This document shows positions 1-12,212 of a stretch of 64,000 bases of DNA, piece by piece. The notes below the pieces were generated by a model. That model did no database searches. It saw nothing but the letters and a program-made list of their open reading frames with translations, and was not told where the DNA came from. The stretch is from the NCBI GenBank assembly GCA_965208835.1, contig OZ242358.1, positions 2,656,001 through 2,720,000 of the forward strand, written 5' to 3'. This DNA is from Candidatus Latescibacterota bacterium (GTDB lineage: Bacteria; Latescibacterota; UBA2968; GCA-2709665). The stretch's first letter is position 1. Every line of letters begins with the position of its first letter. The position numbers were made by a program, and so were the translations under genes.

Positions 1-1038
1 AATCTGGTACTGCTTCGGGAGCTGACGGCAGACTTGAAACGGCGTATGGACGTGCTGTCGACGGTATATAATGTACGAACCAGCTTCCAGGACGGTCAAC
101 CCGAGGTGGACGTCGTGCTGCGGCCGGAAGTCACAGCGGCGTTCGGCCTTACCTCACAGAACCTCGTGCGTGAACTCGAGCGCAGACTCGGCGGCGAGGA
201 AGCCGGAGAACTCTCCAAGGACCAGCGTGCGCGAACCATCCGGGTGGGGTTCGAAGACGTGGATCTTCGTGAGTTGGAACATGCGAGAATCGACGGCCCC
301 GACGGGGCAAGGCTCACGCTGGGAGACCTCGCCGACCTTCGCGTGGTCCAGGGTCCAAGAGAAATTCTGCGTGACGGTCAGCGCAGGGTGGGGAGGGTAT
401 CCGCTTTTCTGACCGAAGGCGTGGTCTTGAGCCAGGCGGCAACGCAGATCAGACAGGCGGTCAGTCAGATGGCCATTCCACACGGGTACCGGATAACCAT
501 AACCGGCGAGGAACGGGAACGTGCCGAATCGTTCGGAGGCCTGCAATTCGCCCTTCTGCTTTCCGTGGTGCTCGTCTACATGGTCATGGCATCGCTCTTC
601 GAGTCTCTGCTGCATCCGTTTACCGTGATGCTGACCGTGCCGCTGGCCGGCATCGGGGTGGTGTTCGCATTCTGGGGACTGGGAGAGGCTTTCGGCGTGA
701 TGGCTTTCATCGGAGCGATCATGCTGGGAGGCATCGCGGTCAACGACGCCATCATCCTGGTGGACCACATCAACCAGTTGCGGCGGAAAGCGGGCGATGT
801 CAGGATGGCCGTCCTCCAGGGCGCGCAGGATCGTCTGCGTCCCATCCTGATGACCAGCGCCACGACCATTCTGGCACTGCTGCCCATGGCGGTGGGTGTC
901 GGCGAAGGCGCCCGCCTGCGGGCGCCGATGGCAGTGGCGGTTATCGGCGGATTGGTGACGTCCACATTAATGACCCTGGTGGTGATTCCAGTCGTCTACG
1001 AAATGATCGAACGGCTCAGAAACAGGAGGACGGCGTGA
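1..1038 (+). CDS. RND (AcrB/AcrD/AcrF family) efflux permease, C-terminal part (5'-truncated by the window edge)
   Basis: Frame is open from base 1. C-terminal RND motifs: LVYMVMASLFESLLHP, GIAVNDAIILVD, RLRPILMT, IGGLVTSTLMTLVVIPVVY. Confidence 0.93.
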   Translation, partial: NLVLLRELTADLKRRMDVLSTVYNVRTSFQDGQPEVDVVLRPEVTAAFGLTSQNLVRELERRLGGEEAGELSKDQRARTIRVGFEDVDLRELEHARIDGPDGARLTLGDLADLRVVQGPREILRDGQRRVGRVSAFLTEGVVLSQAATQIRQAVSQMAIPHGYRITITGEERERAESFGGLQFALLLSVVLVYMVMASLFESLLHPFTVMLTVPLAGIGVVFAFWGLGEAFGVMAFIGAIMLGGIAVNDAIILVDHINQLRRKAGDVRMAVLQGAQDRLRPILMTSATTILALLPMAVGVGEGARLRAPMAVAVIGGLVTSTLMTLVVIPVVYEMIERLRNRRTA

Positions 1039-4000
1039 TTCTCCCCGATCTTGCGGTCCGGCGGCCGGTCACCACGTCCATGTTCTTTGCCGCGTTCGCC
1101 ATATTGGGGGTGGTGTCGTGGACGAGGCTCCCCATACAGCTTTTTCCGGAGCTGATCTTTCCGGAGGTATATGTCACGCTGACGCTGCAGGGGGCCTCTC
1201 CGGAACAGGTAGAGAGAGATCTGCTGATTCCCGTCGAAGGCGAGATCGGCAAACTCGACGGCGTCCAGGAGATGGAATCGTTCGCGATGGCAAACAGGGG
1301 GGGTGTCCGGGTATCCTACGCCCCCGACGTGGATATGAAATTCGCCCTGCTTCAGCTGCAGAGCAACCTGAACCGATTGCAGGCATCGCTGCCCGAACGC
1401 ACGCAGACCGATGTACGGAGGTTCGATTCGACCGATCTCAGCAGCAGCATTATGGAGCTTCACGTGCTTGCCGACTGGGACCTGAACCAGTTGCGGGAGT
1501 TCGCGGAGGAAAAGATCCGACCCGAACTGGAGTCTGTCGACGGCGTCGTGAACGTATCCGTATTGGGCGGGCGCCGCAGCGCGGTTGAAATCGTCCTGGA
1601 TCCGTTCCTGCTGGAAGCGCACGGCCTTTCGACGGGCCAGGTACGGACACGCCTTAACAGCCACAACCGGAGACGTGAGTACCTGGGTCGGGTATACGAC
1701 GGGAACCGGGCCTATTCGGTTAGCATTCAGGGACAGTTTACGGACCTGCACCAGATTCGCAATCTCGTCTTGAACGAGGACGGCACGCTCAGGTTGGGCG
1801 ACGTCTCGCGGATCAGGCACGGACTTCAGGAGCAGGCCGATCGGCACAGAGTCAACGGCAAACCTTCTGTGGGCGTGCGCGTCCAGAAGGACGACGAAGC
1901 GAATCTGATCGAAGTGGCCGCTGACGTGGAAACCGCCGTTGGCCGGCTGAATCGGAATCTCGAGAGTGAGGGTGTGGAACTGGGCGTGAGTTCCTCCCAG
2001 GCCGATCTGATGACGGGGGCGCTCTCCACCCTGAAACAGGCGGCCATCGTCGGTGCCGTGCTCGGGCTCATCGTACTCTTTCTGTTTCTTCGCAACCTGC
2101 GTTTTGTCTCGGTCCTCCTGCTGGCCATCCCGGTCTCCCTCCTGATGACCTTTAATCTGATGTACCTGGGCGGGCTGTCCGTCAACGTGCTGTCGCTTTG
2201 CGGTCTCGCGCTCGCGATGGGAATGCTCGCGGACAACGGCATCGTGGTGATGGAGAATATCTTCAAACACTACGAACGAGGAAAGTCGCCCGCGCGCGCG
2301 GCACGGGACGGGGCGTCCGAAGTCGGGCGCGCGGTGATCGCGGCGACAGCAACCACGGTAACCGCATTCCTGCCGGTTCTGTTCATCGAAAGCGACGCAC
2401 GAGACCTGCTGCGTGAACTCGCGTTGTCCATGGCGTTTCCGCTTGTGGCTTCGCTGCTGGTGGCGCTTACGCTTGTCCCCGCCCTTGCCGTCCGCGCATT
2501 GAGCAGCGAGGTCCGGCAGCCGCCGGACGTCCGTGGCCTGCTCGAACGGTATACCATGCTGTTGAAGGCCGCATTGCGGCACCGTGCATCTGTGGTCCTG
2601 GCGGTCGGCGCCGCCCTTGCGCTGACACTCGTCCTGGCCTTCTTCTACCTGCTTCAACAACAGGTACGGAGGGAGGAGACGCGCTTTACGGTTTACGTGA
2701 ATCTGCCGGAAGGCGCCACGCTGGATGCCACGGATGAGGTTGTGAAACAGGTGGAGGAATCCGTACGGGACGTGCCCGGTCTGGATCGCTTTACGGCGTC
2801 GGTCCGTGAGGCCGAGGCCGACGTAAACGTCCTGCTGCATAACCGTTCCGGGCGGCCCGGTGGTATCTCGCTGGATGAAATCAAGGAACAGCTGGACGAG
2901 AAACTGCAGAATGTACAGGGAGGTGTCGTTGGATACGAACCCAGGCCCAGGGCGGGGAGGGGGGGCCGTGGGCAGGGGATAGGTCAACGCCGGCGGCGCA
3001 GTTCCGGAGGGTTCGATCTGACCGGAACCACGCCTGCAGAGCAGGTCGTGGTACGCGGATACGACTTTACGATACTGACAATGATCGCGAACGACGTGTC
3101 ATACCGGCTTGAGGAACTCGAGGAGGTGGATGCCAACAGTGTACGTGCCGACGCCGAACGGAGTTCGCCCGAGGTCCAGGTGATTCCCGACGCGTCGGCC
3201 CTGTTCGACAGGCGGCTCGACACGCGGGAGGTCCTCGCTGCAATGGGTGACACCCGATGGGACGGGTTCAGAACGACCGTTCCGTTTCTGCTGCCCGATG
3301 CCACCGAGATACCCATCGAAGTGCGAACGATCGAAGAGGAGGACCGCGACCGGTACGGGCTGTCTGAATTCCGGCGTTCGCGCATTCTGAACCAGGACGG
3401 CCACTACGTACCTCTTAACGAAGTCGCCCGGGTCCGGACGGACGAGGGCAGAAGCAGCCTGTTGCGGACCGACCAGACTCGCCGGCTCGTGGTTTCGTAC
3501 AGGTTTCCATCGGAAGTTCTGGATTCTCAACCACGATTGGATCTTGCGAGGCGGGCGGTGCGCGCGACGCTGCAGGATATGCTGCTTCCCGAGGGTTATT
3601 CGATCGAAGTCATCGAGGCACACGAGGAGATGATTTACTATTGGATGATGGCAATAGCCGCGGTACTCATCTATATGATTCTGGCCTCGCTGTTTGAATC
3701 TCTCTCCTCTCCGATAATCATCCTGTGTACGCTTCCGCCCGCGGCCATCGGCTCCTGCTGGGCGCTGATGATGTCAGGTACGGGCCTGAGCCAGCAGGAG
3801 GGTCCCATGGCGCTACTGGGCTTCATCGTCCTGCTTGGTATTGCGGTGAATAACGGGATTATCCTGATCGACGCCGTCGGTGTGCTCAGATCCCGATTCG
3901 GCTATCGTCGGGAACGCGCCGTACTGGCGGCCGCGAGATCCCGTGTAAGACCCATCCTGATGACAACGGCCACCACGCTGCTGGGCGTTCTTCCGCTGGC

Positions 4001-5747
4001 GCTGGAATTCGGCGGCGATTTTGAGATCTGGCCACCCTTCGCAATCACGGTACTGGGCGGATTGTCGGTCTCCATGGTGTCCACGCTGATCCTGATTCCA
4101 GTCGTATATATGGGACTGGATCAAATCGGAGATTGGCTTGCAGATATGGGGTTAATCGGCGTCGCGCTCTCGCTGCTGGCCACGGCCGCGGCCGGCTACG
4201 GCATATTTGTCCGATATGAAAGCACCTTCTGGGCAAGCCTGTCGATAATACCACTCTGGATTGTCTTTTTGACCGTGGCGTGGATCATCCAGAAGGTACA
4301 TCGCTCGCGAGTCGCCGCCCGCCGCGTGTCGAGCGCCGTACACGCCATTCAGTTGAGAAACCTTACCAAGATTTACGGTGCACCCGGACGATTCGTGCGG
4401 GAGTGGGCGCGTGATGAGCGCCGGCGCGGGCGGCTGATGAAAACAGGTCTGGATCCGCAGGACCGCAAGGCGATCCGCGACGCACTCTTTTGGAAGCTGC
4501 CTTTGCTTGCGCTGTTGTCGTTATTCACCGCCTATTTCGAAGACGAAATCTGGGTCTATCTGCATGGGTTGGCGTTGGCCTTTATGGTGGCCCACGTGGG
4601 TCGATGTTTCGCAGACCTCCGCCAGTGGCATCTGCAGGCGCCGTTCGCTGCCATTGTCAGACTGCTGAACAAAGTCGTTCTTCCACTGACGCTTATCGCC
4701 TATGTGCACTGGCGGCTGGACCTGCTTTCGGTCACGCTTGCCACATTCGGACTGTGGGCCGCCTATCGTCTGGCACGCCGGCTTGCAAACCGGGTACGGA
4801 CGGGCGAGATCGATCCTGATGCCCTGTCGGGACGTCTTCTGCGACCGCGCCGGTGGTTCTATCAGATGGCGTCGGCGCTGCCTATTATTGGCGTTCCCCG
4901 GCGGGAATTTCGGGCGCTGGCTGGCGTCAACCTGGAAATCGGCAGGGGGATGTTCGGTCTTCTGGGTCCGAATGGCGCCGGCAAGACCACGTTGATGCGT
5001 ATTCTCTGCCGTGTACTCGAACCCAGCTACGGGTCCATTCTGATCGACGGCCGAAATATCCCGAATAAGGGTTCGATCCATGGACTGATCGGGTACCTGC
5101 CACAGCACTTCGGCAACTACGGACACCTTTCCGCATACGAGTTTCTGGAGTATAGAGCGCTGCTCGAGGGCTTCAAGGACAGAAAGATTCGCGAGACCCG
5201 GGTGATCGAATCTCTGGAGCAGGTCAATCTGAGCGAACGAAGAGACGATCCGATCGGCTCTTTTTCGGGCGGAATGAAGCAGCGCCTCGGCATCGCGCAG
5301 ACGCTCCTGCACGCCCCGCTGATCGTCGTCGTGGACGAGCCCACGGCGGGACTCGATCCGTTGGAGCGTATCCGGTTTCGCAACCTGCTCGCCAGGCTGA
5401 GTCAGGATCGCATCGTCATTTTTTCCACGCATATCGTGGAAGACATCTCGGGAAGCTGCAATCGGCTGGCGGTACTGGACCAGGGGCGTCTACTGTATAC
5501 GGGAACGCCGGGGGAGATGAGAAATCTGGCGGCGGGCCGGGTGTGGGACGCGGTGGTTCCGGACGGACGCTTTTCCGACATGGAGGAACAACTGAAGCTC
5601 ATATCGCACCAGCGAACCCCCGACGGCGTCCGGATGCGATTCCTGTCGGAACGGGCACCGGCCGGAATCGGCGCACAGATCGTGGACCCAACCCTGGAAG
5701 ACGCATATCTCTACCTGCTTGGCGGAGGGGAGGGACAGCCGTGCTGA
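1035..5747 (+). CDS. RND permease fused to a C-terminal ABC ATP-binding domain (1570 aa)
   Basis: GTGA overlap with the upstream RND. RND motifs: AVRRPV, MLADNGIVVMENI, RVRPILMT. ABC motifs: Walker A GPNGAGKTT, Q-loop YLPQ, signature FSGGMKQR, Walker B VVVDEPTAGLD, switch STH. Confidence 0.92.
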   Translation: MILPDLAVRRPVTTSMFFAAFAILGVVSWTRLPIQLFPELIFPEVYVTLTLQGASPEQVERDLLIPVEGEIGKLDGVQEMESFAMANRGGVRVSYAPDVDMKFALLQLQSNLNRLQASLPERTQTDVRRFDSTDLSSSIMELHVLADWDLNQLREFAEEKIRPELESVDGVVNVSVLGGRRSAVEIVLDPFLLEAHGLSTGQVRTRLNSHNRRREYLGRVYDGNRAYSVSIQGQFTDLHQIRNLVLNEDGTLRLGDVSRIRHGLQEQADRHRVNGKPSVGVRVQKDDEANLIEVAADVETAVGRLNRNLESEGVELGVSSSQADLMTGALSTLKQAAIVGAVLGLIVLFLFLRNLRFVSVLLLAIPVSLLMTFNLMYLGGLSVNVLSLCGLALAMGMLADNGIVVMENIFKHYERGKSPARAARDGASEVGRAVIAATATTVTAFLPVLFIESDARDLLRELALSMAFPLVASLLVALTLVPALAVRALSSEVRQPPDVRGLLERYTMLLKAALRHRASVVLAVGAALALTLVLAFFYLLQQQVRREETRFTVYVNLPEGATLDATDEVVKQVEESVRDVPGLDRFTASVREAEADVNVLLHNRSGRPGGISLDEIKEQLDEKLQNVQGGVVGYEPRPRAGRGGRGQGIGQRRRRSSGGFDLTGTTPAEQVVVRGYDFTILTMIANDVSYRLEELEEVDANSVRADAERSSPEVQVIPDASALFDRRLDTREVLAAMGDTRWDGFRTTVPFLLPDATEIPIEVRTIEEEDRDRYGLSEFRRSRILNQDGHYVPLNEVARVRTDEGRSSLLRTDQTRRLVVSYRFPSEVLDSQPRLDLARRAVRATLQDMLLPEGYSIEVIEAHEEMIYYWMMAIAAVLIYMILASLFESLSSPIIILCTLPPAAIGSCWALMMSGTGLSQQEGPMALLGFIVLLGIAVNNGIILIDAVGVLRSRFGYRRERAVLAAARSRVRPILMTTATTLLGVLPLALEFGGDFEIWPPFAITVLGGLSVSMVSTLILIPVVYMGLDQIGDWLADMGLIGVALSLLATAAAGYGIFVRYESTFWASLSIIPLWIVFLTVAWIIQKVHRSRVAARRVSSAVHAIQLRNLTKIYGAPGRFVREWARDERRRGRLMKTGLDPQDRKAIRDALFWKLPLLALLSLFTAYFEDEIWVYLHGLALAFMVAHVGRCFADLRQWHLQAPFAAIVRLLNKVVLPLTLIAYVHWRLDLLSVTLATFGLWAAYRLARRLANRVRTGEIDPDALSGRLLRPRRWFYQMASALPIIGVPRREFRALAGVNLEIGRGMFGLLGPNGAGKTTLMRILCRVLEPSYGSILIDGRNIPNKGSIHGLIGYLPQHFGNYGHLSAYEFLEYRALLEGFKDRKIRETRVIESLEQVNLSERRDDPIGSFSGGMKQRLGIAQTLLHAPLIVVVDEPTAGLDPLERIRFRNLLARLSQDRIVIFSTHIVEDISGSCNRLAVLDQGRLLYTGTPGEMRNLAAGRVWDAVVPDGRFSDMEEQLKLISHQRTPDGVRMRFLSERAPAGIGAQIVDPTLEDAYLYLLGGGEGQPC

Positions 5748-6463
5748 ACTGGCGGGAACTGCTGTTGACCACGTGGCGGCTTTATCGGCTGAGCTGCAGG
5801 ATCATCTTTCACAGGAAACTGATGTTCATGTCCATTGGCATCCTTGTCTATTACGCCGCCATGTACGCATTCGCGGTGTGGCGTCCCGACGAAGGATTCG
5901 GCGTATCGAGGGCGCTCCATGTTCTGGTTGAAATTCCCGGCATCGCACTGGCCATCTATCTGACGATGGATCTCGTCGCTGGCGAACGTGACAGGAATAC
6001 ACTGGAGACGTTGTTCAGCACAACCTCGTCGCACTACAGGATCTGGACGATTCGAATGTTGGGGGTCTATCTGGTGCTTGCGGGAACACTAACGGGAATG
6101 ACGATTGTCGCCTACTTCTTCTTCGCGGAACTGCCGATCCTATGGGGCGGGTTGAACGCCTTTCTGCCGGCGTGCTTTGCAGCGGGGCTCACTTTTTACT
6201 TTTCCGTTCTCTGTCGAAGCGGAAACGCGGCCGCAATGCTCGCAACGGGCGTGATGGGCCTGACGCTTGTTGCCTCACAATCAATGCCCGACTCGCCCTT
6301 CGTGCTTTTTCTGGATACGTTCGATCCCCCGGTGGGAATGGAAGACACGTTGTGGGGCGACCGCGTACTGCTGAATCGCATGGCGGTCGCGCTGCTGTCG
6401 GGCCTGCTGCTTCTTATTGGTCTTCGCAAGATGGAAGCCAGGGAAAGATTGGTATCTTCGTAG
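5741..6463 (+). CDS. ABC-2 type transporter permease
   Basis: GTG start overlaps the stop of the fusion gene. About 6 hydrophobic segments and an ABC-2-like motif AGERDRNTLETLFST. Confidence 0.8.
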   Translation: MLNWRELLLTTWRLYRLSCRIIFHRKLMFMSIGILVYYAAMYAFAVWRPDEGFGVSRALHVLVEIPGIALAIYLTMDLVAGERDRNTLETLFSTTSSHYRIWTIRMLGVYLVLAGTLTGMTIVAYFFFAELPILWGGLNAFLPACFAAGLTFYFSVLCRSGNAAAMLATGVMGLTLVASQSMPDSPFVLFLDTFDPPVGMEDTLWGDRVLLNRMAVALLSGLLLLIGLRKMEARERLVSS

Positions 6464-6516
6464 GTTTGCGCTGCCCCGCATCTGATGAACCCGGGCCGAA
6501 TCCTCTCCAGCACATT

Positions 6517-7659
6517 CTATTCCCTGCTTACATCCAATCGGACCTTCCGGGGAACGACGTTTACGACCGCCAGGTCCGTCCCGTGCCTTACCGACTCGGT
6601 GCCGAATTCAAAGGTTCTGCGTCCAAACCTCACGTAACCGGCGTCGATAACGAGTTGGAAGTCGTCCACGGGCGCCAATAGGATTGCACGACGCGGACCC
6701 TTCATGGTAACGTCTACGACGGCAGGTGTAACGCCCTTCAGCTTATAGCCACGTGGCAGATTCTCCACGCCGACCTTCACTTCGTATGTCGTTTCCCGGA
6801 CCGCCGCGCCGGGTACCAGAAACATCCACGCGCAGAACGCCAGCACGAGGGAAACCAACCCCTCCGCAAGACGCCGCACCAGCCGGCCCCGTCCGTTTTT
6901 CCGCCCGCCGGCGACCACGTGCTGCGCATGTTCCTGCAACCTGGCCAGAAGTTCAACCGGGTCGCCTACGACTTCCAGCACTCCCTGTTGCGCCACGGAG
7001 ATGGTGCCGCGCTCTTCGGAGACAACGAGGCACAGGGCATCGCTGCGTTCGGCCAGCCCGAGCGCAGCGGCGTGGCGGGTGCCTCCCGCGCCGAGTTCGG
7101 TGCGGTTTTCCGAAAGCGGCAGATGTACGGCGAAACGCTCCAGTTGGTCATCTTTCATCACCAGAGCCCCGTCGTGGCCCGCCGACGACGTACCGAACAG
7201 GCTGTCGATCAGCTCTTCACTGATATTGGCCTGTAGCGCGATCCCGCCCTGCAGAAGCCTGTCCAGCGGCTCTCGCCCGGGCAGGACCACGAGGGCGCCC
7301 CGCCGCTTCACCGCCAGCTGATGAATCGCACGAACCAGCACCGCCAGGCTGCCTCCTCGGGGCCGGGATACCCGTCTGCCGAGGCCCAGCGCGGCAATCT
7401 GTTCGAACAGCCGCCGGAGGTCGTCCTGAAATACAACGACAAGCAGCACAACCAGCACTGCGAAAAAACCCTGGAATATCCACGCCGTCAGCTGCAGTTC
7501 GAATTGCCGGGCCAGCAGATAGAAGACGCCCAGAAACGCCAGCCCCACAAGCGCCATTCGCGCGTGCATTCTCCGTGTCCAGGCAAGCAGACCCCAGATC
7601 AATACACCCACGACCGCTACGTCCACCAGATCGGCAAATGCGATGTCCATTAACGCCAT
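6517..7659 (-). CDS. cdaA: Diadenylate cyclase (CdaA/DacA, DisA_N domain) with N-terminal TM helices and a C-terminal TM + YbbR/CdaR-like domain
   Basis: Three N-terminal TMs, VVVFQDDLRR, GALVV, HDGA, GTRHAAALGLAERSDA, VVSEERG; C-terminal VENLPRGY...VDVTMKGPR is YbbR-like. Confidence 0.88.
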   Translation of the reverse strand: MALMDIAFADLVDVAVVGVLIWGLLAWTRRMHARMALVGLAFLGVFYLLARQFELQLTAWIFQGFFAVLVVLLVVVFQDDLRRLFEQIAALGLGRRVSRPRGGSLAVLVRAIHQLAVKRRGALVVLPGREPLDRLLQGGIALQANISEELIDSLFGTSSAGHDGALVMKDDQLERFAVHLPLSENRTELGAGGTRHAAALGLAERSDALCLVVSEERGTISVAQQGVLEVVGDPVELLARLQEHAQHVVAGGRKNGRGRLVRRLAEGLVSLVLAFCAWMFLVPGAAVRETTYEVKVGVENLPRGYKLKGVTPAVVDVTMKGPRRAILLAPVDDFQLVIDAGYVRFGRRTFEFGTESVRHGTDLAVVNVVPRKVRLDVSRE

Positions 7660-7741
7660 TTCGGGGGTTCTGCGGCTGTGAAATTCAGGCTTCCGAATGC
7701 TAAAGCATACACTTGAGCGGTGGATTTATCCACCGGTACGG

Positions 7742-7770
7742 AATATGGGCAATCTTTCACATTTCGTCAA
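7742..7770 (-). promoter_or_regulatory. Putative sigma70 promoter for cdaA
   Basis: TTGACG-17 nt-CATATT on the minus strand. Confidence 0.55.
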
Positions 7771-7892
7771 GACCCCGTCCGGTATTCATCAATAATCCGG
7801 CGAATGCCCGCCGGGTACCGTGACACCCTGATCGTCGCGGGGTCCGCCGACCGCTTCGTGAAACGGAATTGCCCGTTGTACCCGTCTTTCGC

Positions 7893-7921
7893 TTGGCCGG
7901 TACCCGGAAAATACATATATT
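7893..7921 (+). promoter_or_regulatory. Putative sigma70 promoter for the TPR/lyase operon
   Basis: TTGGCC-17 nt-TATATT. Confidence 0.45.
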
Positions 7922-7992
7922 TATCGACTCCGGAATCAACAGGAAATGGATACCGATTCATCAGGCGCTGTTACGGCATGGAGGTAAGTGAT

Positions 7993-8673
7993 ATGCAGGG
8001 TACACGGGGACGGTTGACCAGACGGGAACTCAGGCAGGACGAGTTTGTCAACAGAATACTGGCGGCGTGGGCCTATGTGGAAGAGAACTATGTCCGGGTG
8101 CTTGCCGCCGGCGGGGGAGTGGTTGTCCTGATCCTGCTCGGCGTATTCGTCATGCACCAGATGGACGCCCAGGCCATGGAGGCGGTGGAGGCGGAGGGCC
8201 GGGTCCGGGTACTGCTGCTCCAGGGGAGGGTCGACGATGCCATTCTGGACGCGGAACGCGTTGCGGAAGCCTATAGCGGAGATGCGGCAGCGGGGCGGGC
8301 GCTTCAACTGGCTGGCGGTCTTTATTTCGAAACCGGACGCTACGCGGAGGCGCGTGCTGCATTCGAGAGATACCTGCAGGCGTTCGACGGGGGAGGACCC
8401 GCGAGGTACAGCGCCTGGTCCGGTATCGCGGCCGCAATGGCAGAAGAGGGTGATCAGGCAGGTGCGGCAGCCAAATACCTGGCGTTCGCCGACGAATTCG
8501 TCGACTCGCCGTTTGCGCCCAATGCGCTAAGGGAGGCTGCGCGCTGTTACAGACTATCGGGCGATACAGTCCAGGCCGGAACGCTGCTCCAGCGCATCCT
8601 GGACCGTTATCCCAGAAGCCCGGTTGCGCAAAGCGCCGGGGAGGAACTCAATCAGATGGGTGGTGTCGGATGA
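7993..8673 (+). CDS. Membrane-anchored tetratricopeptide repeat protein (YfgM/CpoB-like)
   Basis: GGAGG RBS before ATG 7993; N-terminal RLTRRELRQDEF, one TM, TPR helices, C-terminal RYPRSP. Confidence 0.78.
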   Translation: MQGTRGRLTRRELRQDEFVNRILAAWAYVEENYVRVLAAGGGVVVLILLGVFVMHQMDAQAMEAVEAEGRVRVLLLQGRVDDAILDAERVAEAYSGDAAAGRALQLAGGLYFETGRYAEARAAFERYLQAFDGGGPARYSAWSGIAAAMAEEGDQAGAAAKYLAFADEFVDSPFAPNALREAARCYRLSGDTVQAGTLLQRILDRYPRSPVAQSAGEELNQMGGVG

Positions 8674-11600
8674 CGGATCCGGAACTGAAAACGACCCGGT
8701 CACGCGAATTCAACCCGACCGACCTGGCCGACGATATCCTGCTGGTGGTACCTGACGATATGTTGCGCCATTCCGCTGTCGCCAGCGTTCGCGACGCGGT
8801 GGGGAAGGTGGGACGACCGCCGGAAACGATCCCTCAGGGATGTTTCCGACCGGAGCAGTTCCGGGAAAGGCATGTCATTGCATTCGGAAATCTGGCAAAT
8901 AACCGGGCGATCCAGCGATTATACACCGCCCGGTGTTGTTTTGTGGATACCTTGTTCCCTGGCGCGAACGGCTATCTGGTCAAGTCGATTTCAGATCCGT
9001 TCGGATACGGCCGCAATTGCATTGTCGCGGGTGCCAGTTCCGATGATGGACTGGCGGCGGGCCTCGGCGTTTTCACGGACATCGTCGCCGCCGGCAACGG
9101 CTGTCTGGACCGCGTCCACGCCGCGTCTTCGGGACCGGAAATGCCCCTCCCGCCGGATGCTTCGGAGATCAACCGGATGGTACGGGACGATCTGAAGATC
9201 TGGGGAACGGGGTGGTCGGCTTCGCCGTTTCGCGGAGGCAGGCTGCTGACATATCTCTGGCGTCATTACCTCACGGACCACCCGGTCTGGGCGCGAGCGG
9301 CGGTGGAAATCCTGAAGGGATCCATAGAACCGTGGCGCGCGGAATGCCGTGCGCACCCGGAGGCCTACCACTGTTTCTTCAACCTGCACCTCTATATTCA
9401 TCTATGGGACCTCGTGGAAGACAACCCGCTGTTTACGCGGGAAGACCGTCTGGGGGCCGTCACGATGTTCGCCGAGTTGCTGAGGCATCTTATGAAGCTC
9501 TCGTACGTCTCGGAGGAAGTGAATCCTCCAGGTGAAATCCGGCAGAACCACACGACTTTCATCGGGTTGAACCTGGCGGTGGGCGGCGACTACATGACAA
9601 GGCGGCACGGAATTGGGGAGTTTCGACGGGCGAACGAAATCGCAAGCCGCATATTCGAAGGTCAGATGGACTGTTACAAGCCCGATGACGATGGGGGAGT
9701 GGGGTACGTCTGGCACACGCCCCAGGAAACACTCAGCTACTCTCTGTACCGCGACGACGACCGTTACCTGACCGGGGGCCACGTGGCGGACCTCTGCAAA
9801 CTGGCCGTTGTCACCACCGATAATATGCGCAGCGAATGCGGTTACGGCGATACCTCCGGGTATTCTGCATTCGCCACAGACGGATGGGAAGCGCGCCTCT
9901 GGCCGTTGATGGTTTCGACCTGGTATCGTCCGGACCCCGGACACCTCTGGACGTTGAACTGGCTGGGCGAGGGAAAACGGCCTCCAACGGACGGGGCGCT
10001 GCACGGCCTCTATTCGGCGGTCGAGTACGTGGGCGACCGCTTCGCCATTGAAGGATGCGCGCCGGAAGCGCCCCGCGATCTGCTTGGAATCTGCGTGATG
10101 GATATGCCCGATGCGGTGCTGTCCTGGGTGCGTCGATATACCCCGCAGGCGCATCATCCGGACCCCCGCAGACGGTATTTCGACAAGCTGTCGCTGCGCC
10201 GTAATTTCGAGCCGGGGGGCGAGTACCTGTTGCTGGAAGGCATCGGCACGACCTGCCATGGCCACGAAGATACCAACGCGATCATCCGGCTGACATGGAA
10301 CAACAGGGCCTGGCTGGCGGACGGGGATTACATCCGGGCGGCGCCCAGGTTTCACAATTCCGTCACGGTCATGCGCGACGGCGTGGGAGTCCTCGAGTCG
10401 CCCGGTGAGGGCGTTGTCATTCCCCCTCTGGCATCCTTGAGCATCGGTAACGACGGCGCGGAACTCGCGACGCTCCGTTCCGAAGCCGCAGGATACAACG
10501 GCGTGGACTGGCAGCGCGACATTTTCTGGCGCAAGAGCCGCTATATGGTGGTCCTGGACCGGCTGCGCTGCCACGAAGCGGGTGACTATCGTCTGCAGTG
10601 TCTGTGGCGGACGGTGGGGGACCCGGCGCTCGAGGAGGAAGGGGTTCGCATCCGACAGGAGGGAGAGGAATTTCATATCCGTAACGCGGACGGTTCGTCG
10701 CAGGAAATCGTACCGGATCCGCACGTCAAGAGCCGATGGGGGAGCTATCCTTATTCGGACGGGACGATTTCCGTACTGCATCAGCGAACCGGGTGTACTC
10801 TCGATGCGGGAACGTCGTTTACCTTTTTGAATCTGCTTACCCCGGACCCCGACATCCGTATTGAGCGGATCGGTGCTGACGCGGTAAAGGTGACGGATGG
10901 AGACGAAGTCGCTCTGTTGGGCGCCGGGACCCTTGATTTGGATGGTCTTCAGCTTTCGGGAAGCATGTTCGGGTGCCTCGCCCAAGGCAATCGCGCGGTC
11001 CTGAATGGCGTCGAACGGCTGGGCGGACGAGCGGTCGGCAGCGATGAACGGGCACTGGACGATCCCGAGTTTGCGACCCGTATCCGCCGTGCGCCGGAAG
11101 CATCTCCGGCAGCCCGGCCCGCAGACCGCCCTCCGGTTTCCGGCGGGCCGTCGGAACGATGGCGCCGCGAATTCCCGCACAGGATTCGCCACGTCTGCGT
11201 CTCAGACGAAGACGAATTGCTTCTTGCGTATGGCACGGAGGTCGCGTGTCTGTGTGCGGCGAACGGCGATACGGCCTGGTCCCGGCCGATTGACGCGGAA
11301 GGCGGCGCCAGCCGCGTGCATCTGTCGGATATCGACGGTGACGGGAATTCGGAAGCAATGGTGGGTACCGAAGACTCGCAACTGGTTGTTCTGGTAGGGG
11401 ATTCGGGTGTGGAACGGTGGCGGCGCGGAATGGCGAATATGTTCAATCGCGGTACCCGGGTGTCCGCCATTGCGGTGGCCGACCTGGAGGGGAACGGCGA
11501 CCTGAGCGTGCTTGCCGGTACCGAAGGATGGTTTGTCAACGTGTTTGCGAACGACGGCAGCCCCAGATGGGCCGAGTGGTTTCGATATCACGCCATCACG

Positions 11601-12212
11601 GCGTTGACAGTCACAGACACGGACGGCGATGGCAGGGCCGAGGTTCTGGCTGGCACGGAATATTACACGCCGCTGACGGTACACAACTTCGACGGTTCGT
11701 TTCGCTGGTCCACGTTCGAGCAGGTTGGATCGCACGGCAACGCCACAACGCCCAGGCGCGGCATCGGTCTGAAACATATGGTGCTGTGCGACCTGGACCG
11801 CGACGGCGTTCTGGAAATCGTTTACGGCACGGAGGACGGTTGGATCTATGCCGTGAAACCGCAGGACGGCGAGGAAATCTGGCATGTCAATCTCGTTGGG
11901 GAGATCACAGGGCTCGTCGCCCTGGACGATGTCATCGTCGCGGCGTGCGAATTCGGCGTGCTGTACGGGCTTGATTTCAACGGGAATATGGTATGGCATC
12001 GGAACGAAGCGCAATGGATCCACGCGCTGGCCGAATCAGCCGGTGTAATCGCCGCCGCGGTCAACCGGCGGGAGATCCGGACGTACGATCGGGAGGGACG
12101 CTGCCAGGGTTCGCTGGAAATGCCCGCAAACGTCACGTCGCTCACCGCGGCCAAAGACGGATTCGTCTGTGCCGATGAACGGGGCGTCGCAATGATTGAT
12201 CTCCAGGCATGA
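8670..12212 (+). CDS. Large heparinase II/III-like lyase with a C-terminal FG-GAP/PQQ-like beta-propeller
   Basis: QNH, HGHEDTN and HNSV motifs; four DxDxDG-type repeats (DIDGDGNSE, DLEGNGD, DTDGDGRAE, DLDRDGVLE); ATGA overlap with the TPR gene. Confidence 0.65.
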   Translation: MTDPELKTTRSREFNPTDLADDILLVVPDDMLRHSAVASVRDAVGKVGRPPETIPQGCFRPEQFRERHVIAFGNLANNRAIQRLYTARCCFVDTLFPGANGYLVKSISDPFGYGRNCIVAGASSDDGLAAGLGVFTDIVAAGNGCLDRVHAASSGPEMPLPPDASEINRMVRDDLKIWGTGWSASPFRGGRLLTYLWRHYLTDHPVWARAAVEILKGSIEPWRAECRAHPEAYHCFFNLHLYIHLWDLVEDNPLFTREDRLGAVTMFAELLRHLMKLSYVSEEVNPPGEIRQNHTTFIGLNLAVGGDYMTRRHGIGEFRRANEIASRIFEGQMDCYKPDDDGGVGYVWHTPQETLSYSLYRDDDRYLTGGHVADLCKLAVVTTDNMRSECGYGDTSGYSAFATDGWEARLWPLMVSTWYRPDPGHLWTLNWLGEGKRPPTDGALHGLYSAVEYVGDRFAIEGCAPEAPRDLLGICVMDMPDAVLSWVRRYTPQAHHPDPRRRYFDKLSLRRNFEPGGEYLLLEGIGTTCHGHEDTNAIIRLTWNNRAWLADGDYIRAAPRFHNSVTVMRDGVGVLESPGEGVVIPPLASLSIGNDGAELATLRSEAAGYNGVDWQRDIFWRKSRYMVVLDRLRCHEAGDYRLQCLWRTVGDPALEEEGVRIRQEGEEFHIRNADGSSQEIVPDPHVKSRWGSYPYSDGTISVLHQRTGCTLDAGTSFTFLNLLTPDPDIRIERIGADAVKVTDGDEVALLGAGTLDLDGLQLSGSMFGCLAQGNRAVLNGVERLGGRAVGSDERALDDPEFATRIRRAPEASPAARPADRPPVSGGPSERWRREFPHRIRHVCVSDEDELLLAYGTEVACLCAANGDTAWSRPIDAEGGASRVHLSDIDGDGNSEAMVGTEDSQLVVLVGDSGVERWRRGMANMFNRGTRVSAIAVADLEGNGDLSVLAGTEGWFVNVFANDGSPRWAEWFRYHAITALTVTDTDGDGRAEVLAGTEYYTPLTVHNFDGSFRWSTFEQVGSHGNATTPRRGIGLKHMVLCDLDRDGVLEIVYGTEDGWIYAVKPQDGEEIWHVNLVGEITGLVALDDVIVAACEFGVLYGLDFNGNMVWHRNEAQWIHALAESAGVIAAAVNRREIRTYDREGRCQGSLEMPANVTSLTAAKDGFVCADERGVAMIDLQA

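Follow-up and report, generated by a model that had tools for sequence, protein, structure and literature searches.

The 64,000-nucleotide stretch of DNA analysed here (the window) belongs to a Candidatus Latescibacterota bacterium (assembly GCA_965208835.1, contig OZ242358.1, forward-strand positions 2,656,001 to 2,720,000) and carries, close to its beginning, a gene encoding a protein of 1570 amino acids (1035..5747, + strand). In this protein, a permease of the resistance-nodulation-division (RND) type, two extra transmembrane (TM) helices and a split ATP-binding cassette (ABC) ATPase are joined in a single open frame, with Pfam matches to ACR_tran and ABC_tran. The split consists in the fact that the predicted first strand of the ATPase, which holds the A-loop tyrosine, is separated from the remainder of the domain by an insert with four hydrophobic helices.

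The RND permease domain comprises residues 1-1029 (1035..4121, +), and ACR_tran (PF00873) aligns with its full length (residues 5-1027 on profile positions 3-1019 of 1021, E 2.3e-184); its best solved relative is MdtB (9lyq_B, E 1.4e-85). Directly after TM12 of this domain, hydropathy and AlphaFold2 (AF2) indicate the two extra TM helices (4149..4292, +; residues 1039-1059 and 1066-1086), joined by a periplasmic turn of 6 residues. They are followed by the first strand and A-loop of the ATPase (4344..4379, +; residues 1104-1115, with K1112 and Y1114 invariant), which was recognised by profile scan, conservation, AF2 and structural alignment, and by a conserved RFxREW motif (residues 1119-1124) that starts an amphipathic helix of helical moment 0.72 (4389..4445, +; AF2 helix 1119-1137). 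The insert continues with two helical hairpins delimited by hydropathy, each with a turn of 3 residues: hairpin 1 (4491..4601, +; residues 1153-1168 and 1172-1189, AF2 helices 1141-1167 and 1171-1196) and hairpin 2 (4668..4772, +; residues 1212-1226 and 1230-1246, AF2 helices 1202-1228 and 1231-1255). The cytoplasmic loop between them (4602..4667, +; residues 1190-1211) varies from 15 to 131 residues across the family and is its least conserved stretch (mean top-residue frequency 0.28), and a basic linker (4773..4910, +; residues 1247-1292, with a median of 11 Lys and Arg residues, an AF2 helix at 1269-1281 and conserved G1266, P1283, G1286 and F1292) returns into strand 2.

The ATPase core (4911..5534, +) was delimited by its motifs and by Pfam, ABC_tran (PF00005) matching residues 1297-1438 with E 1.9e-26 and 93.7 bits, well over the gathering threshold of 25. 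By position, its motifs, all on the + strand, are the Walker A GPNGAGKTT (residues 1311-1319, 4965-4991), the Q-loop (1354-1357, 5094-5105), the signature FSGGMKQ (1410-1416, 5262-5282), the Walker B with the catalytic Glu (1430-1435, 5322-5339), the D-loop (1438-1441, 5346-5357) and the H-loop (1463-1466, 5421-5432). The core is followed by a C-terminal domain (5535..5744, +) common to a free sister ATPase, P0124, to which the BLASTP alignment extends as far as residue 474 of the 481-residue query, and for which AF2 gives strands and a helix at positions 474-533 of the modelled segment.

That such a protein is an artefact of two or three genes joined by a sequencing or assembly error can practically be dismissed. 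The open frame spans 4713 nucleotides with an even GC content (0.58-0.61), and the RND core is fused in 65/65 loci as the same single frame of about 1550-1650 amino acids, complete genomes of cultured strains included; this conservation refutes the artefact, and no point in its favour was found.

The fusion gene is part of a cluster. In L005, the record that holds the upstream DNA of the same genome, the gene order is P0124, a protein of 1132 amino acids, an RND adaptor, a first RND permease (RND1), the fusion and a protein of 240 amino acids. RND1 (1027 amino acids in full; L005:12955-16038, ACR_tran E 3.4e-223) starts upstream of the window, so that only its 3' part is seen there (1..1038, +; ACR_tran 685-1020/1021, E 7e-79); its last 4 nucleotides are also the first 4 of the fusion gene, and it shares 35% identity with the RND part of the fusion. 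The gene for the 240-residue protein (5741..6463, +) has a GTG start and overlaps the end of the fusion gene by 7 nucleotides. When only loci with enough flanking DNA are counted, RND1 is found in 59/61, the adaptor in 57/58, the large protein with an ABC-2 domain in 50/53 and the 240-residue protein in 64/68. Between adaptor and RND1, the window's genome has about 500 nucleotides (L005:12453-12955) without any open reading frame (ORF) of at least 120 amino acids, a distance that amounts to 3-60 nucleotides in most other loci.

The split of the ATPase had first been noticed in an earlier reading of these letters (the sequence-only reading), and the positions given there were correct: IQLRNLTKIYG corresponds to residues 1105-1115 (4347-4379), RALAGVNLEI starts at 4911, and Walker A lies where indicated above. 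Between Y1114 and G1311, the first glycine of Walker A, there are 196 residues (187-280 in the family, median 199); where strands 1 and 2 are contiguous, as in 36 ordinary ABC ATPases that the genome also encodes, this distance is 22-33 residues, with a median of 23.5. These ATPases were defined as genome frames with a Walker A and then an ABC signature plus at least 40 residues upstream, which yielded 37 segments, one of them the fusion. The difference between 196 and the median of 23.5 leaves about 172 residues for the insert, so that the sequence-only reading was right about a large insert between elements that are normally close together, and slightly wrong about its length, which it had put at ~177 residues.

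The 36 ordinary ATPases (35 when the closest paralogue is omitted) served to build a 12-column log-odds profile of the first strand and A-loop. Of the 1559 positions scored in the fusion protein, the top one corresponds to residues 1104-1115, with 22.2 bits (21.2 with the smaller set), a value that exceeds the median of real strands in leave-one-out (15.4 and 12.7) and that is attained in 0/300 shuffles of the protein. The runner-up, with 17.9 bits at residue 403, falls on the RND TM4 motif, which means that the profile is imperfectly specific and, alone, no proof. Applied to 65 full-length relatives from other genomes, it gives its best match 170-300 residues before Walker A in 62; among the three misses, L023 shows the same strand block with a longer insert, while the two remaining ones point to other sites. 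Together with K1112 and Y1114, which are kept in 68/68 aligned rows (one row is gapped there), this replication bears out the conservation of the insert in homologues, which the sequence-only reading had proposed to check. The alignment used, A2, comprises 68 of 76 complete C-terminal translations, omitting the near-duplicates L007, L010, L018, L021 and L040 and the cut or odd-length L030, L072 and L073; 4 of the 80 loci had been dropped beforehand for length or stops.

The sister ATPase P0124 (296 amino acids) provides the unsplit counterpart. It begins with MRIVATGLTKIY and, after LTKIY, continues at once with strand 2, an arrangement shared by 5/5 of its orthologues. P0124 and the fusion are 47% identical over 279 residues, with a BLASTP alignment that starts only at PRREFRALAGV, and the NCBIfam GldA model matches P0124 from profile position 1 and the fusion only from position 17. 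The split ABC_tran match that the sequence-only reading had expected did not appear: Pfam and NCBIfam alignments of the fusion begin only at residues 1291-1297, and Pfam finds no match in the ~270 residues between ACR_tran and ABC_tran.

Residues 1030-1570 were modelled with AF2 from a 69-row alignment, which is shared by all model-based statements made here. The model has a mean predicted local distance difference test (pLDDT) of 80.9 and a predicted template modelling score of 0.62. DSSP assigns helices to residues 1031-1061 and 1064-1098 (pLDDT 81-92 over most of them), a strand to 1104-1114 (pLDDT 77-79), a helix to 1119-1137, the four helices of the insert, of 25-27 residues each (pLDDT mostly 84-91), and, after the helix of the return linker, strands to 1292-1303 and 1305-1310, which lead into Walker A. 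A strand is called by DSSP only for residues bonded to another strand. In the structural comparison, 50/50 solved ATPase domains among the matches listed align from model residues 71-75 (1100-1104) onwards with Z 24-27, and they do so from their own first residues or N-terminal strand. Examples are 1vpl (Z 26.4, root-mean-square deviation 1.8 Å, 232/238 residues, chain 2..239), 4yer_B (Z 27.3, 3.3 Å, 255 residues aligned) and LptB (4p31_B; Z 25.9, 2.2 Å, 222/230 residues). An alignment of 97% of the template includes its first strand. When the membrane part (1030-1292) was folded without the ATPase core, the six helices were kept (mean pLDDT 84.7), and residues 1100-1118 became coil, with a pLDDT of 58-59.

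These data support a model in which strand 1 is retained in the ATPase fold despite the insert, with Y1114 as the A-loop aromatic residue in its canonical place. At the level of the model, the strand folds into the ATPase and the insert is helical and hydrophobic, as the sequence-only reading had proposed. Its idea of a membrane domain inserted into the A-loop holds as far as the insertion is concerned; the site has to be moved out of the A-loop to a point just past its tyrosine, within the strand 1-2 hairpin.

The strand-like block could in principle be a relic, in which case the ATPase would fold without it or be inactive, and the hydrophobic stretch would be a long linker. The score given by the profile to an unrelated RND motif speaks for this, as does the late start of the Pfam and NCBIfam alignments. 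Nevertheless, K1112 and Y1114 are invariant over phyla sharing 37-42% identity, AF2 forms strand 1 from the block and solved domains are aligned onto it, which makes this explanation very improbable. In addition, Walker A, Q-loop, signature, Walker B with its Glu, D-loop and H-loop are invariant in 69 rows, and the ATPase is, to judge from its motifs, catalytically complete.

The insert itself shows the hydrophobicity, the helix lengths and the positive-inside pattern of two membrane hairpins. All six hydrophobic segments (Kyte-Doolittle), that is, the four of the insert and the two between the RND C-terminus and the ATPase, are seen both in the fusion protein and in the family mean, as the sequence-only reading had indicated for this protein. 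The cytoplasmic segments contain a median of 5, 10, 5 and 11 Lys and Arg residues, and the periplasmic turns, of 6, 3 and 3 residues, contain 0, 0 and 1 (69 rows). The even number of helices in both the pair and the quartet places the strand and the ATPase core together on the cytoplasmic side. Both linkers open with strongly amphipathic helices, that of the return linker having a helical moment of 0.77. As for conservation, at least 90% of the rows retain R1122, E1123 and W1124 of the RFxREW motif, as well as five tryptophans located at the ends of helices. The top residue of a column has a mean frequency of 0.67 in the strand, 0.64 in the motif that follows, 0.68 in TM15, 0.82 in the ATPase core and 0.28-0.48 in the other helices and the loops. 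An anchoring role for the insert fits these features. In the rows labelled candidate division KSB1, the loop between the hairpins holds an extra lysine-rich stretch of about 30-50 residues.

Searches with the membrane region gave little to compare it with. Pfam has no match on the insert region in any of the 69 members, all of which are matched by ABC_tran; residues 1030-1292 gave a single chance match (E 0.64) among the sequences of solved structures; and in the ESM Atlas, the best feature score for the insert, 0.87, led to unnamed short clusters and to no lead. When the membrane module was compared by fold, on its own, with 48,161 chains, the matches listed were generic helical hairpins, the best of which (Z 9.1, covering segment residues 109-208) lie below the level that means more than a common arrangement.

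The fusion is widespread. A search with residues 1030-1570 found at least 120 cluster representatives, all with ACR_tran and ABC_tran; the listed ones are mostly 1540-1650 amino acids long, with 38-89% identity and a coverage of mostly 94-100%. The best 80 loci, with one genome per species, are assigned to Bacteroidota (46), Latescibacterota (18), Calditrichota (3), one each to Krumholzibacteriota, Zixiibacteriota, Ignavibacteriota, Chlorobiota, Deferribacterota and Actinomycetota, and seven have no phylum label. The nearest relatives belong to Latescibacterota (77-88% identity). Among the carriers available in culture are Prolixibacter bellariivorans (ATCC BAA-1284), Marinifilum fragile (JCM 15579), Labilibaculum filiforme, Mariniphaga sediminis, Mangrovibacterium lignilyticum and two Gaoshiqia species. 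Within Latescibacterota, 82/168 genomes carry one copy (E up to 1e-100), 34/52 when only high-quality genomes are considered, and some families carry the fusion nearly always and others never. A RefSeq record of the same architecture, WP_025863973.1, exists, and public annotation is generic ("efflux RND transporter permease subunit" or "ABC transporter domain-containing protein"). The fusion was also found as single ORFs of 1565-1569 amino acids in metagenome-assembled genomes labelled Muribaculaceae, Bacteroidaceae and Bacteroidales (L096, L097, L099 and L101), each followed by a protein of 232-236 amino acids.

When the insert was searched alone (residues 1100-1300, against 1.84 billion cluster representatives), 46 matches were obtained. 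The full-length ones all have 1559-1590 amino acids and are aligned at about 1090-1316; the short ones start inside the helices or the RND part. The insert is seen only in the fused architecture among these 46 representatives, and the lone split candidate has fused relatives, which means that the fusion has never been seen split. This candidate, P0152 (526 amino acids, with a Met before TM13), was rejected as an unfused form given that the genomic relatives closest to it, at 73% and 55% identity, proved to be ORFs of the fused type, with 1569 and 1565 amino acids, and it is most likely a cut gene call. P0126, P0127 and P0164 were likewise discarded as fragments that begin inside the helices or the RND part.

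In 5/5 genomes from different phyla, the best match to P0124 is encoded 13-14.5 kb upstream of the fusion, on the same strand, with the fused ATPase as the second best (42-47%) and the next one at 32-40%. In a maximum-likelihood tree of ATPase cores, which comprised 26 of the 69 fused rows, hand-picked to cover the diversity, along with six free ATPases and another five from the genome, the fused group has a support of 98/98, the free group of 99/94, and both together against the outgroups of 89/79; the outgroup branches are long and the root is that of the midpoint only. Such a topology fits one ancient duplication within the cluster and a single origin of the insert. The sister ATPase, together with the second RND gene and the 240-residue permease, forms the wider picture that had escaped the sequence-only reading, in which the split anatomy itself had been correctly described.

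The 240-residue protein was assigned as a probable, divergent ABC-2 permease on the basis of its hydropathy, of weak Pfam matches and of a complex prediction. It has six hydrophobic segments, and weak matches to ABC2_membrane were found in 14/59 members of its family (E up to 0.1, the best being 5e-8); the copy in the window reaches 17.4 bits with ABC2_membrane_2/3, below the cut-off of 31.6. The predicted complex of this protein with residues 1030-1570 of the fusion scored 0.62, and the best of three controls 0.00, a mark that 58/80 solved complexes and 2/110 mismatched pairs attain, in counts that are rough because the alignments used here were built for this analysis. At least 89% of the contacts coincide between runs, with a partner pLDDT of at least 72. 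The permease contributes to the confident interface its N-terminal helix (6-24), a loop (85-96/101) and its C-terminal residues 234-238; of the eight positions that are invariant in its family, four (E89, F92, R234 and E235) are named among the interface residues. On the ATPase side, it comprises 1322-1383, 1422 and 1426, in the Q-loop and helical subdomain, as well as Y1114-G1115. The 240-residue permease is predicted, therefore, to dock on the fused ATPase through the canonical interface, although solved complexes of the same class exist and the score may reflect a likeness to them.

The presence of this permease bears on another interpretation, according to which the six extra helices would themselves be an ABC membrane domain and would form a heterodimeric pathway with the 240-residue protein, the fusion being a permuted half-transporter. 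ABC-2 membrane domains likewise have six helices, TM15 stands out among those of the fusion as the best conserved, and the module folds confidently alone. On the other hand, hhalign gives a probability of 0.1% between the 240-residue family and the C-terminal family, the region is devoid of Pfam matches throughout the family, no residue of the insert takes part in a confident interface, and the periplasmic turns have only 3-6 residues. There is also no ABC membrane domain among the 50 fold matches listed for the module, which is not decisive, as one is not thereby excluded. On balance, a half-transporter of this kind seems unlikely.

The RND part shows changes of its own. At the proton-relay positions of TM4 and TM10 (D407/D408/K940 in AcrB numbering), the fusion has DN and N in contrast to DD and K in MdtB (9lyq_B), and the TM11 Arg is kept. 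A pattern scan gives the altered residues in 47/57 orthologues of the fused RND (RND2), and the usual relay triad is not conserved in this RND subgroup. Changes of this type are also found in RND1 (DN, and ND in TM10) and in an unfused paralogue (G000:C1:3955321-3958398), by which the loss of relay residues was ruled out as a mark of an ATP-driven fused RND. The scores with the MdtB and MdtC equivalogs (343.4 against 1584 and 376.6 against 1774) stay below the cut-offs.

An ATP-gated or ATP-assisted RND pump, in which the ATPase would open, close or power the RND cycle through the six helices, corresponds to the mechanical coupling suggested in the sequence-only reading. It finds some backing in the position of the helices, which flank strand 1 on both sides directly after RND TM12, in the conserved W1034 at this junction, in the relay positions that differ from MdtB and in a fusion that is never found divided among the 46 cluster representatives. 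Against it, the relay changes are common to RND1 and the unfused paralogue, a dedicated ABC-2 permease accompanies the fusion in most loci and is predicted to occupy the membrane-facing groove of the ATPase, and the helices are without conserved polar residues suggesting a coupling to force or protons. We regard such a pump as doubtful.

Among the other products of the cluster, the 1132-residue protein (L005:7925-11323) has six N-terminal TM segments, which ABC2_membrane_3 and GldF match weakly, and about 880 external residues that include a Golvesin_C domain. For this external part, a single solved relative was found, a xanthan lyase of Paenibacillus, in its C-terminal domain (6f2p_A, E 1.7e-6). 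The Prolixibacter orthologue shows a weak Peptidase_M1 match, and an HExxH motif was not found in the protein of the window's own genome. These likenesses to a xanthan lyase and an M1 peptidase are the sole hint at a substrate. The comparison by hhalign of the 240-residue family with the N-terminal 260 residues of the 1132-residue protein, taken as a single sequence, gave 0.3%. In Prolixibacter, the cluster also includes an outer-membrane factor gene (OEP), located between the large protein and the adaptor, so that both companions of an RND pump, adaptor and outer-membrane factor, are found alongside the RND genes.

Downstream of the cluster, the window encodes a CdaA-type diadenylate cyclase on the opposite strand (6517-7659, -; DAC E 1.9e-32, with the CdaA N-terminal TM domain), which converges on the end of the cluster; this position is kept in the closest Latescibacterota relatives (L006-L011) and lost in more distant ones. 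It is followed by a TPR protein of 317 amino acids and by a protein of 1180 amino acids with FG-GAP and PQQ-like beta-propeller repeats (7720-12212, +), whose genes overlap at stop and start. A promoter and terminator scan of 5600-7800 detected nothing above shuffles.

According to all these data, the function that we consider probable, though with modest confidence, is that of a tethered two-stage export machine, in which the six extra helices would staple an ABC exporter to a tandem-RND pump. The six helices would act as a double membrane staple, keeping the ATPase against the inner surface of the membrane, next to the transmembrane domain of the RND part, and orienting it in such a way that its membrane-facing groove could bind the 240-residue ABC-2 permease. 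In this way, an ATP-driven exporter of the ABC-2 class would be linked covalently to a tripartite pump with a tandem RND pair. In a first stage, the ABC module would lift the substrate from the cytoplasm or the inner leaflet to the periplasmic side; in a second stage, the proton-driven RND pair, with the adaptor and the outer-membrane factor, would expel it.

Several points weigh against this proposal. The bacterium's own cluster is without an outer-membrane factor gene, OEP genes being located only elsewhere in the genome, and the cluster is absent from 86/168 genomes of the phylum. The canonical proton-relay residues of the RND part differ, in a way that is not specific to the fusion given that unfused paralogues are alike. 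RND pumps are trimers and ABC ATPases are dimers, which creates a symmetry mismatch. Apart from the tryptophans at their ends, the helices are poorly conserved, which would fit an anchor as well as a segment of low function, and none of the insert helices is among the confident contacts with the 240-residue permease, which counts neither for nor against. What strand 1 pairs with, and where the helix bundle lies with respect to the ATPase and the RND part, is taken from DSSP states and alignment ranges and is to that extent provisional. Moreover, AF2 is blind to membranes, and the likely membrane insertion of the helices is read from hydropathy and charge bias.

The content of the cluster allows a more speculative extension, which we hold to be rather unlikely, in which the two-stage machine would be one supercomplex. 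As the cluster contains two RND genes, two sister ATPases and two ABC-2 membrane domains, it would allow an RND trimer of 2:1 composition with an ATPase pair. Two RND1 and one fused RND2 would form the trimer, the single tethered ATPase would pair with its free sister, and the 240-residue permease and the N-terminal ABC-2 domain of the 1132-residue protein would make up a heterodimeric exporter, so that ATP hydrolysis and the proton gradient would act in series from the cytoplasm to the cell exterior. If this were true, it would be the insert that makes it structurally possible to combine a two-fold ATPase with a three-fold pump.

The significance of the fusion lies in the fact that RND and ABC pumps are usually treated as separate engines linked only through a periplasmic pool of substrate. 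A conserved RND-ABC fusion would be a test bed for a direct hand-over from an inner-membrane exporter to an envelope-spanning pump. It also indicates that a whole membrane module can be accommodated in the first hairpin of the ABC ATPase fold, which bears on how an ABC domain folds at the membrane while it is being synthesised and on how this strand 1-2 hairpin, regulatory in CFTR, can be exploited. An RND-ABC fusion with a membrane-split ATPase has apparently not been described: a full-text literature search, covering open journals and main texts, yielded no account of RND and ABC proteins fused to each other, nor of an ABC ATPase that contains membrane helices, and a term search of the review PMC8277102 gave no such fusion in the parts it reached.

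The closest precedent for the insertion site is the regulatory insertion of CFTR NBD1 (residues 404-435), located in the same hairpin between strands 1 and 2. However, the CFTR insert has about 32 residues and is soluble, mobile and phosphorylated, whereas that of the fusion has about 172 residues, with four hydrophobic helices and basic linkers, is conserved and, in the model, is mostly ordered rather than a short disordered segment. With respect to its class, the fused ATPase resembles that of ABC-2 (type V) exporters such as DrrAB, GldAFG, NosFY, ABCA and ABCG: its best NCBIfam models are drrA and GldA, its best solved relatives are ABCA4, ABCA7, ABCA3 and ABCA1, and its six-TM permease partner would have the N-terminal interface helix and the coupling loop of this class. 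The scores with the DrrA and GldA equivalogs (TIGR01188, 165.6 against 312.45; TIGR03522, 158 against 402.6) are below every curated cut-off, which places the ATPase outside the named families. We know of no member of the ABC-2 class in which membrane helices interrupt the ATPase or in which it is joined to an RND pump.

Tandem RND pumps such as MdtABC and MuxABC likewise have one adaptor gene followed by two different RND permease genes, a parallel that concerns gene order alone; MdtBC is a B2C heterotrimer. Unlike in these systems, to which the fused RND is not orthologous by its equivalog scores, the second permease carries an ATPase. Finally, MacAB-TolC and YbhGFSR also combine an ABC ATPase with an adaptor and an outer-membrane factor in an envelope-spanning context, and the MacB ATPase domain (5lj9_A) matches the model with Z 25.1, no better than others. 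In those systems, the ABC transporter is the inner-membrane engine, whereas here an RND pair is also present and is covalently joined to the ATPase.

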